A stretch of 32,000 nucleotides of DNA, from assembly GCF_008065095.1 (NCBI RefSeq), contig NZ_CP042911.1, positions 1,200,001-1,232,000 on the forward strand. Direction: 5' to 3'. Both the position numbers and the translations under genes were made by a program. The notes under the pieces are model-generated. The model did not search any database and was not told where the DNA came from. It saw only the letters and a list, made by a program, of their open reading frames with translations. This stretch comes from Gemmata obscuriglobus. Its GTDB lineage: Bacteria > Planctomycetota > Planctomycetia > Gemmatales > Gemmataceae. This document shows positions 25,825-27,226 of this stretch, piece by piece; within the stretch, counting starts at the first letter, position 1; each line of letters starts with the position of its first letter.

Positions 25825-27226
25825 GCCGCGCGAGAACGGCCCCCCACGCCCCGGTTCCTTCTCTCCAGAGAGGGAGAGCGGGAACCGCCTCCCACCTCCC
25901 GGTCAACCGGTGCTCCGCATCCGCGGGGTGAACCACTACTTCGGTTCCGGTGACACCCGCACGCAGGTGCTCTTCGACAACAACCTCGAAGTGATGCCGG
26001 GCGAACTCGTCATCATGAGCGGACCGAGCGGGTCCGGCAAAACCACCATTCTGACCCTCATCGGCGGGCTGCGCACCCTCCAGGAGGGCGAAATCGAGGT
26101 CTGGGACGCCGACCGCGGCGGGTACCGCACGCTCCAGGGCGTTCCGGAGCCCGAACTGGTTCAGGTGCGGCGGCTCATCGGGTTCATCTTCCAGCGCCAC
26201 AACCTGTTCGACTCGCTCACGGCGGTTCAGAACATCCGGATGGCCCAGCAGCTCAAAGAACGCGCCACCGACCCCGGTGCGGACGCCCGTGACGTACTCA
26301 CGTACCTGCTGCTCGGCGAGAAGGACCTGGCGGGCAAAGATCAGAAGTCGCGGTTCGACTACAAACCTGCACAACTTTCGGGCGGGCAGCGGCAGCGCGT
26401 GGCCATCGCCCGCGCGCTCATCAACCGTCCCAAACTGGTACTAGCGGACGAACCGACCGCCGCACTCGACGCGAACAGTGGTCTCGCGGTGGTCACGCTG
26501 GTGCAGGAGCTGGCGCGCGCCCGGCCGGAAGCCGACCTCATGAAACTCGTGCGGTCGGCGGAGGAGGCGGGCGAGAACGGGCGCCTCGCGGAATGGCAGG
26601 TGCCGCTCCTGAAGCGGGTCGTCGCCGAGCACGGGACGACGAGCCTCATCGTGACGCACGACGCGCGCATCATGAACCTCGCCGACCGGATCGTTCACAT
26701 GGAGCGGGGGCGGATCGAGTCGAACGTGGTGGTCGCGGAGCGGCTGTTCGTGCGCGAGGGGCTGCGGCAAAGCCCGGCGTTCGCCGCCGTGCTGCCCGAG
26801 GAGCAGGAGAAGCTTGCCGATTCCGTACTCATCGGCGTTCACCCGGGCGAGGACGTGCGCCCCGATCACCTCGCCCGAAGTCCCGGACGAGTCGAAGTAT
26901 ACGAACCGGGACAGTTCATCGTCCGGCAGGGGGAAGCGGTCAACGAAGAGAGCAAGTTCTACCTGATCCGGCGCGGAACGGTCGAGGTGCTTCGCGACGT
27001 GGACGGTGCGGTTCAGAAGCTGACCGAGTTGGGCGCGGGGCGCTACTTCGGGGAGGTGGCGTTCCTGCTCGACCAGCCGCGCAACGCGAGCGTCCGCACG
27101 CTGACACGCGTCGAAGTGTACACCGTCAGCCGAACCGCGTTCGACCGGTTCCAGTCGGTGAGCCGCCCGTTCATCGAGCGCGTGCTGGCCAACTTTCGTG
27201 CGGGTGACGGGTCACCGCGAACGTAA
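25814..27226 (+). CDS. ABC transporter ATP-binding protein (DevA/MacB-NBD type) fused to a C-terminal cyclic-nucleotide-binding (CAP-effector) domain
   Basis: ATG 25814 overlaps the devC2 stop by 11 nt. Walker A is GPSGSGKTT, Q-loop region IGFIFQ, signature LSGGQRQRVAIARAL, Walker B LVLADEPTAALD, H-loop LIVTHD. The C-terminal ~155 aa contain EVYEPGQFIVRQGE...FYLIRRGTVEV...LGAGRYFGEVAFLLDQPRNASVRT, a cNMP-binding beta-roll with phosphate-binding-cassette pattern. Confidence 0.88.
   Translation: MSSEPRENGPPRPGSFSPERESGNRLPPPGQPVLRIRGVNHYFGSGDTRTQVLFDNNLEVMPGELVIMSGPSGSGKTTILTLIGGLRTLQEGEIEVWDADRGGYRTLQGVPEPELVQVRRLIGFIFQRHNLFDSLTAVQNIRMAQQLKERATDPGADARDVLTYLLLGEKDLAGKDQKSRFDYKPAQLSGGQRQRVAIARALINRPKLVLADEPTAALDANSGLAVVTLVQELARARPEADLMKLVRSAEEAGENGRLAEWQVPLLKRVVAEHGTTSLIVTHDARIMNLADRIVHMERGRIESNVVVAERLFVREGLRQSPAFAAVLPEEQEKLADSVLIGVHPGEDVRPDHLARSPGRVEVYEPGQFIVRQGEAVNEESKFYLIRRGTVEVLRDVDGAVQKLTELGAGRYFGEVAFLLDQPRNASVRTLTRVEVYTVSRTAFDRFQSVSRPFIERVLANFRAGDGSPRT

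Follow-up and report, generated by a model that had tools for sequence, protein, structure and literature searches.

Related transport systems

Control of ATP-binding cassette (ABC) pumps of the MacB type (MacAB, LolCDE, FtsEX and DevBCA) is believed to operate mainly at the level of expression or by way of partners in the periplasm. If the ATPase itself carried a cytoplasmic receptor for a second messenger, such a pump would gain a rapid layer of post-translational control. Here we analyse devA::CNB, a gene of Gemmata obscuriglobus whose product joins a MacB/DevA-type nucleotide-binding domain (NBD) to a C-terminal cyclic-nucleotide-binding (CNB) domain. The gene lies in a stretch of 32,000 nucleotides (contig NZ_CP042911.1 of RefSeq assembly GCF_008065095.1, positions 1,200,001 to 1,232,000), hereafter the window, and coordinates refer to this window unless a locus from another genome is named.

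DevBCA of Anabaena/Nostoc PCC 7120, together with HgdD, is a glycolipid exporter and a tripartite ABC system of the MacB type. The Gemmata locus resembles it in matching the models for DevA, DevB and DevC (DevA, DevB and DevC2 above their cutoffs), in the gene order devB, devC, devA, and in permeases with FtsX and MacB_PCD domains. The presence of both domains in both permeases, together with an NBD of the MJ0796/LolD/FtsE subgroup, places the system among MacB-type (type VII) transporters, and the ATPase also has the genetic context of the DevA family, a conserved operon with an adaptor of the DevB type and an FtsX permease of the DevC type. The two systems differ in that Gemmata has two DevC paralogues instead of one, that no gene for an outer-membrane factor (TolC-like) was seen in the window, and that the cyanobacterial DevA model, with 220 positions, has neither a C-terminal domain nor the insert described below.

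The same general architecture has been described in Mycobacterium tuberculosis, where Rv2563/Rv2564 and Rv0072/Rv0073 are MacB-like systems whose NBD bears a regulatory domain (PMC7761784), a PF00027 CNB domain being recorded for Rv2564 (PMC4886424). These actinobacterial systems are uncharacterised, and their likeness to DevA::CNB is drawn from the published descriptions, not from sequence; unlike the Gemmata locus, they have a single permease gene and no DevB-type adaptor. The sole experimentally probed CNB-ABC fusion that we found is HetC of Nostoc PCC 7120, whose CNB domain is needed for function in vivo and bound ppGpp, GTP and GDP, not cAMP (PMC10986499). HetC is of another ABC class: a full-length exporter that includes a transmembrane domain and a C39 peptidase and carries its CNB domain at the N-terminus. 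Prokaryotic CNB domains on ATPase domains, several of them with ABC-transporter transmembrane regions, were grouped by Kannan et al. (2007; PMC2246266) as Family 16 ('AAA_Atpase'), which is probably made up mainly of HetC-like exporters. The consensus of that family is GEMALLSGQERKASVIA, with a variable Arg, whereas the DevA::CNB family has an invariant Arg with Asn after it.

A ligand-binding domain also follows the NBD in MetNI, ModBC and MalFGK2, where it controls NBD closure, and MetN chains aligned with our full-length model over about 430-450 columns (Foldseek). However, these transporters are trans-inhibited importers whose regulatory folds are ACT-like or TOBE, with no CNB beta-roll, and bind the transported substrate instead of a second messenger. 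For the CNB domain itself, the best matches in both fold and sequence were the CNB-B domains of PKA RI-alpha and PKG I, which regulate kinases and share the phosphate-binding cassette (PBC) pattern FGE.AL....PR.A[TS]V; the residue after the PBC Arg is Ala in PKA, Thr or Ser in PKG, and Asn in DevA::CNB.

A MacB/DevA-type ATPase with a canonical CNB domain

The devA::CNB gene (25814..27226, + strand) encodes a protein of 470 aa, assigned with Pfam, NCBIfam and AlphaFold2, and its start overlaps the stop of devC2 by 11 nt. The reading frame is continuous, with a G+C content at third codon positions (GC3) of 0.84 in a window of about 64-72% G+C. Its closest sequences come from other Gemmata genomes: the whole protein is 94% identical to one of Gemmata sp. 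JC717, and the C-terminal domain is 97% identical to that of Gemmata algarum JC673.

The NBD, delimited by motifs and fold matches, occupies aa 33-303 (25910..26722, + strand). Pfam ABC_tran was found at aa 55-216 (E 1.3e-28), and the NCBIfam model of the DevA family, TIGR02982, aligned at all its positions (1-220) with aa 33-302 and scored 349 bits against a cutoff of 295.8. Walker A (GPSGSGKTT), the Q-loop (Q127), the signature (LSGGQRQR), Walker B (LVLADE, with E213), the D-loop (ALD) and the H-loop (H282) are all intact, and these motif positions are invariant among homologues, a set that would be expected of a catalytically active ABC NBD. The full-length AlphaFold2 model was confident (predicted local distance difference test, pLDDT, 87.1; predicted template modelling score, pTM, 0.79), and its top Foldseek matches were the NBD-only chains of MacB, MJ0796, LolD, FtsE and YbbA, with target template modelling (TM) scores of 0.75-0.88. 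The family profile and the fold matches therefore agree with the MacB/DevA-type assignment made in a preliminary description of this DNA.

Because the NBD dominated the full-length search, which was uninformative for the C-terminal domain, the C-terminal part (aa 296-464) was modelled and searched alone (pLDDT 85.6). The top Foldseek matches of this model were the CNB-B domains of PKA RI-alpha and PKG I in ligand-bound form, with cAMP or cGMP (E 2e-11); query TM scores against PKA and PKG CNB domains were 0.56-0.74, and target TM scores reached 0.80. A C-terminal profile searched against PDB sequences likewise retrieved PKG and PKA regulatory subunits (E 2e-36 to 1e-28), and Pfam cNMP_binding (PF00027) matched aa 361-446 with 69.9 bits (E 1.9e-19) against a gathering score of 27.5. 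The secondary structure predicted by the AlphaFold2 models, with N-terminal helices, a beta-roll and the alphaB/alphaC helices, fits a CNB domain, and the PBC is intact. Following the N-terminal helices, the beta-roll, PBC and alphaB/alphaC helices extend over aa 341-463 (26834..27202, + strand), as delimited by Pfam, profile and Foldseek matches. The C-terminal region is thus a CNB domain of canonical fold. The preliminary description had placed such a domain at 26726-27199, after the NBD end IVHMERGRIE; this span corresponds to aa 305-462, linker plus CNB domain, and the peptide to aa 293-302, and both the profile search and the structure prediction show the CNB fold there.

The phosphate-binding cassette and the linker

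The PBC, FGEVAFLLDQPRNASVRT, lies at aa 412-429 (27047..27100, + strand), with G413, E414, A416, R423 and A425 intact and an unusual N424. Its peptide FGEVAFLLDQPRNAS (aa 412-426) reads F412-G-E-V-A-F-L-L-D-Q-P-R423-N424-A425-S and keeps every one of the ribose and phosphate contacts known from PKA and PKG (Gly, Glu, Ala, Arg and Ala). F412, G413, E414, R423, N424 and A425 were present in 120 of 121 sequences, as was A416, the sole exception being a gap. G388, in the beta2-beta3 turn, is invariant among homologues and pairs with the PKG glycine in the profile alignment; in cAMP-binding families the glycine of this turn is co-conserved with the PBC Arg (Kannan et al. 2007; PMC2246266).

The Arg-Asn-Ala (R-N-A) motif was found in 25 of 50 NBD-fused CNB domains, counted after excluding the close Gemmataceae loci, and Asn occurs at this position in several more. 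Among 129 other CNB domains recovered with the same profile, only 6 had R-N-A, the commonest forms being RTA (55), RAA (27) and RSA (19). Since both sets were picked by similarity to a profile that itself contains R-N-A, a bias that would tend to raise the motif in both, the contrast is indicative and not a clean statistic. The preliminary description rightly regarded R-N-A as unusual among CNB domains overall; the form that it gave as usual, R-[ST]-A, should be widened to R-[TSA]-A. Our comparison adds that, judged from these sequences, R-N-A characterises ABC-fused CNB domains as a family and is not peculiar to this gene.

Between NBD and beta-roll, the linker helix and the N-terminal CNB helices occupy aa 304-340 (26723..26833, + strand) and carry the pattern NVVVAERLFVREGLRQSPAFAA.LPEEQ.K.AD..L. 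In the AlphaFold2 model the linker emerges from the last NBD strands (292-297 and 300-306) and continues directly as a helix (307-319), followed by further helices at 321-324 and 328-338. Conservation, expressed for each segment as the mean majority-residue fraction among Gemmataceae homologues, was highest in the PBC (0.92; 11 of 18 columns invariant), followed by the linker and N-terminal CNB helices (0.89; 21 of 37 columns invariant), the NBD core (0.85) and the beta-roll (0.71). The PBC and the linker are thus the most conserved segments of the protein within Gemmataceae, which to our reading is new. Conservation at least equal to that of the NBD core would be expected if ligand binding and signal transmission were both under selection, and the pattern suggests selection on the ligand site as well as on its connection to the ATPase. 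It indicates that the fusion is functional.

Distribution of the fusion

Both domains and the insert were present in 120 of the 120 homologues listed, from Gemmata, Frigoriglobus, Urbifossiella and other Gemmataceae. The fusion is kept in more than 120 clusters of Gemmataceae orthologues, and a survey of 1.84 billion cluster representatives returned dozens more clusters of 365-420 aa that combine an NBD with a CNB domain. The same survey recovered NBDs followed by two CNB domains, by a receiver (REC) domain (P0217) or by a GAF domain (P0220, P0226); relatives with REC, GAF or tandem CNB domains in the C-terminal slot also include P0195, P0198, P0199 and P0219. Because sister proteins carry such different sensors there, the C-terminal position can be regarded as a slot for regulatory input, and such a swappable position seems to be general among MacB/DevA-type ATPases. 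A search with the C-terminal 171 aa alone returned mostly gene fragments and was useless as an architecture survey.

The class that lacks the insert, with proteins of about 380 aa, is larger than the insert-bearing one. An insert-less profile gave at least 120 matches, and those listed range only from E 4e-162 to 3e-157 and all have PF00005 and PF00027; the named organisms among them belonged to Pirellulaceae, Pirellulales, Lacipirellulaceae, Gemmatales and Gemmataceae. When contigs from one genome per species were searched with the C-terminal profile, the family with the conserved linker was found only in Gemmatales (34 loci, L001-L034); matches beyond these were mostly unrelated CNB proteins, the only further NBD::CNB fusions being in one Verrucomicrobiae genome (L036) and three other Planctomycetota (L040, L047, L055). 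In all four, the insert-less gene stands in a devB-devC-devC-NBD::CNB operon. The NBD of two representatives, P0170 (725 aa) and P0176 (819 aa), is split between profile positions of about 125 and 150 by some 300-380 inserted residues, and the conserved linker and CNB domain still follow.

DevA::CNB has the features that define the NBD::CNB class, a MacB/DevA-type NBD followed by one CNB domain in a single polypeptide, encoded beside an FtsX permease. The class is large, with hundreds to thousands of Planctomycetota sequences, and apparently includes M. tuberculosis Rv2564 and Rv0073. The preliminary description had allowed that the architecture might prove to be a common and well-characterised family; the database survey and the literature show that it is common and catalogued, but it is uncharacterised in the literature searched, in which we found no paper characterising a MacB/DevA-type NBD::CNB protein. 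DevA::CNB, a well-preserved representative of this large and catalogued group of MacB-type ATPases with fused sensors, is no surprise to the specialist. The original observation is confirmed and its interpretation partly supported.

A Gemmatales-specific insert in the NBD

The NBD contains an insert of about 30-36 aa between the D-loop helix and the H-loop, at aa ~235-263 (26516..26602, + strand; ~36 aa when counted to residue 270). Its presence, already noted in the preliminary description, is supported by the alignment with MJ0796, in which residues 186-191 are used twice (query 233 with chain residue 191, then query 264 with chain residue 186 again), and by a single gap of about 36 residues in insert-less NBD::CNB homologues, between '...L.ELA...' and 'G.T.L.VTHD'. 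The peptide had been located correctly to within one codon, its start being A236 and not residue 235. The double use of MJ0796 residues 186-191 on both flanks suggested that the insert might be a copy of the neighbouring helix, but the similarity was not strong enough to establish such an origin. In the AlphaFold2 model, which is confident here (pLDDT about 90-95), the helix behind the D-loop spans residues 220-234 and continues at 262-269, ahead of the H-loop strand, with two short helices (239-243 and 249-255) in between.

R237, L245, V246, R247, E254, G256, R257, L258, W261 and Q262 are nearly invariant among the 120 Gemmataceae homologues, all of which carry the insert, and it is thus under purifying selection. 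Among representatives at 50% identity, only the closest have it (P0164 and P0167; in part P0165 and P0166), while P0169, P0196 and P0231 have the conserved linker without the insert. This distribution makes it a late, Gemmatales-specific addition, and on present sequences the confinement of the insert to Gemmatales is a new finding. As it is missing from most members of the fusion class, the insert would stand outside any general mechanism; by position it adjoins the H-loop and D-loop, parts of the ATP-dependent dimer interface, and it would probably tune the coupling in Gemmatales.

Proposed regulatory mechanism and alternative explanations

We consider it fairly probable that DevA::CNB serves as the ATPase of a DevBCA-like envelope exporter of the MacB type (type VII) in Gemmata, an exporter putatively gated by a ligand of the CNB domain. 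In the likely assembly, two DevA::CNB subunits would act on a heterodimeric DevC1/DevC2 permease joined to the DevB adaptor. A ligand of the cyclic-nucleotide type, probably cAMP or cGMP, would bind the PBC and reposition the PBC, the hinge and the N-terminal CNB helices, and with them the linker, which sits on the last NBD strands; a shift of the linker may then alter the ease of NBD closure and of ATP hydrolysis, by activation or by inhibition. Export across the envelope could in this way be switched post-translationally by a second messenger. In PKA, PKG and Epac, the ligand changes the position of PBC and hinge with respect to the N-terminal helices, and the NBDs of MetN, ModC and MalK can be kept apart or allowed to close by a C-terminal domain. 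The step from hinge to linker is modelled on the former proteins and the control of the NBD on the latter, and by these analogies direct gating of ATP hydrolysis, as the preliminary description predicted, is a reasonable inference. Retention of the fusion both in Gemmataceae and in the insert-less class with the same operon would be consistent with such a role, for which the requirement of HetC for its CNB domain in vivo sets a precedent (PMC10986499). The R-N-A signature, the conservation of PBC and linker, and the swappable sensor slot together make a working allosteric input more likely than an appendage that has degenerated or is purely structural.

Several observations weigh against gating of the exporter by cAMP or cGMP. 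The residue after the PBC Arg is Asn instead of Thr, Ser or Ala, so that the ligand may differ from these two nucleotides, and the closest divergent relatives have Asp or His in place of the PBC Glu (FGD/FGH) while retaining R-N-A (P0164-P0169, P0196, P0231, P0203, P0284), which hints that the ribose contact may vary within the class. No nucleotide cyclase gene was found in the window, the gene stands away from devC in 3 of 29 informative loci (L011, L014, L030), the literature searched holds no binding or ATPase data for NBD::CNB proteins of the DevA/MacB type, and the CNB domain of HetC bound ppGpp in vitro with a Kd of 59 uM, cAMP giving no stabilisation (PMC10986499).

In another reading the CNB domain is regulatory but responds to a different ligand, such as (p)ppGpp, a nucleoside, or a cyclic nucleotide of the pyrimidine or 2',3' type, with R-N-A as the mark of a separate class of specificity linked to ABC ATPases. 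The contrast in R-N-A frequency between NBD-fused and other CNB domains and the near-invariance of N424 would be consistent with it, as would HetC and the CNB domains of trypanosome PKA, which reportedly bind nucleosides and not cAMP (PMC10959531). However, every cyclic-phosphate and ribose contact residue of PKA and PKG is kept, the Arg that CNB families with non-cyclic-nucleotide ligands typically lose (PMC2246266) is retained, and Asn may be neutral at position 424, where true cyclic-nucleotide binders allow Thr, Ser and Ala; we therefore hold this reading to be possible but unlikely. A bolder version, which we rate as rather unlikely, would treat the R-N-A cassette, with its roughly ten-fold, indicative enrichment in ABC-fused CNB domains, as the mark of a dedicated receptor class, in which a nucleotide other than cAMP or cGMP, such as (p)ppGpp or a cyclic nucleotide of the pyrimidine or 2',3' type, would directly switch MacB-type envelope exporters through the linker and, in Gemmatales, also through the insert. 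If true, second messengers would act on transport in Planctomycetota and related phyla by a widespread and previously undescribed route. The CNB domain might instead act independently of any ligand, as a module for constitutive dimerisation or docking, holding the NBD pair stable or bringing in a partner, its cassette being kept only for the stability of the fold. The C-terminal domains of MalK and MetN are largely dimerisation scaffolds, the long alignment of MetN chains with our model fits such a role, and the linker is more conserved than the beta-roll; yet the PBC is the most conserved segment of all and includes R423 and E414, whose only known role is ligand contact, and the REC and GAF sensors in the same slot of sister proteins argue for signal input, which makes a ligand-independent module quite improbable. 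That the fusion is an artefact of assembly or annotation, through a frameshift or a missed stop, has a negligible probability: the frame is continuous with high GC3, the homologues that carry both domains in one protein come from independent genomes and metagenomes, and a confident single-chain model was obtained, so that we rejected this explanation.

The preliminary description also proposed that the locus integrates cyclic-nucleotide and cyclic di-GMP (c-di-GMP) signals, with a nearby PilZ protein acting together with the DevBCA::CNB pump. This protein, probably encoded at 28045..28578 on the + strand, about 0.8 kb downstream of devA::CNB and in the same orientation, matches Pfam PilZ with 29.8 bits (gathering score 22.5), has an N-terminal hydrophobic segment, and shows the intact motifs RxxxR (RAATR) and DxSxxG (DRSTGG) in its translation. 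It was correctly placed two genes away, since an ORF of 77 aa (27321..27554, - strand), convergent with devA::CNB and with no Pfam match above threshold, intervenes; this ORF was found only in the five closest Gemmata loci (L001-L005), at 80-99% aa identity. The PilZ gene is syntenic in the same five loci, out of about 26 with enough downstream sequence, which speaks for an association; however, a conserved gene on the opposite strand separates it from devA::CNB, no PilZ homologue or motif was found after the gene in about 20 other Gemmataceae loci with at least 1.5 kb of downstream sequence, and, as other downstream genes differ, close relatedness alone accounts for the synteny. The PilZ gene is neither fused to devA::CNB nor co-conserved in one operon with it, as PilZ-coupled transport would lead one to expect. 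Integration of the two signals is therefore very improbable, and the PilZ protein probably lies outside the system.

With gating by a CNB ligand as the favoured reading, DevA::CNB offers an easy entry point to the class, as a soluble ATPase of 470 aa with a clear ligand-binding hypothesis; it would provide a testable model system but no new principle.

Operon and neighbouring genes

The gene devC2 (24607..25824, + strand), immediately upstream of devA::CNB, encodes an FtsX/MacB-type permease of 405 aa with Pfam FtsX and MacB_PCD domains, which scored 302.8 bits with TIGR01185 against a cutoff of 290.35. A second permease with the same Pfam domains, devC1 (22940..24322, + strand), scored 250 bits, below this cutoff; its true start is probably M56 at nt 23105. 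The two are about 34% identical (33-35% in paralogue cross-matches). Further upstream, devB (21601..22779, + strand) encodes the membrane-fusion (periplasmic adaptor) protein, with 361.9 bits for TIGR02971 against a cutoff of 129. It is preceded by two conserved neighbours assigned with Pfam, a DUF3307 protein (21222-21599, + strand) and an MFS transporter (19890-21173, + strand), which are syntenic in L002, L003, L005, L009, L012, L021, L022 and L025.

In 26 of the 29 informative Gemmatales loci, devC2 stands immediately upstream of devA::CNB, in most of them together with devC1. The genes that follow devA::CNB differ among loci (GlgC, an aminotransferase, a TPR protein and others), and the operon therefore ends with devA::CNB. 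The adaptor gene is adjacent in 14 Gemmatales loci and missing upstream of devC1 in at least five, among them L001 (G. algarum JC673, the closest relative; 3801-5165) and L004 (Gemmata sp. IIL30; 3183-3887), where a DUF1501 protein or a hexapeptide transferase takes its place; given these two loci, the adaptor gene is not always linked to the operon. The DevC pair is kept in Gemmatales, in other Planctomycetota and in one Verrucomicrobiae genome (L036, L040, L047, L055), which suggests a heterodimeric membrane unit like LolC/LolE, unlike the single cyanobacterial DevC.

Some loci depart from this arrangement. In L011 (7133-11692), devA::CNB lies between genes for a CheB methylesterase and a protoglobin-coupled histidine kinase. 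Several genomes have 1.8-3.2 kb between devC1 and devC2 (L021, L002, L022, L025), where L021 has a gene in the opposite orientation for a leucine-rich-repeat Ser/Thr kinase (4439-6460, - strand) and L002 one for a leucine-rich-repeat protein (4628-6091, + strand). The contig of L003 is labelled as a Singulisphaera metagenome-assembled genome, yet its locus is fully syntenic with the Gemmata window at 75-88% protein identity, which suggests an error of binning or naming. Elsewhere in the window, a search against Rfam found no RNA element, and an ORF at 3278-4618 (+ strand) has both a PDZ domain and the domain of prolipoprotein diacylglyceryl transferase (Lgt), which is an uncommon pairing.

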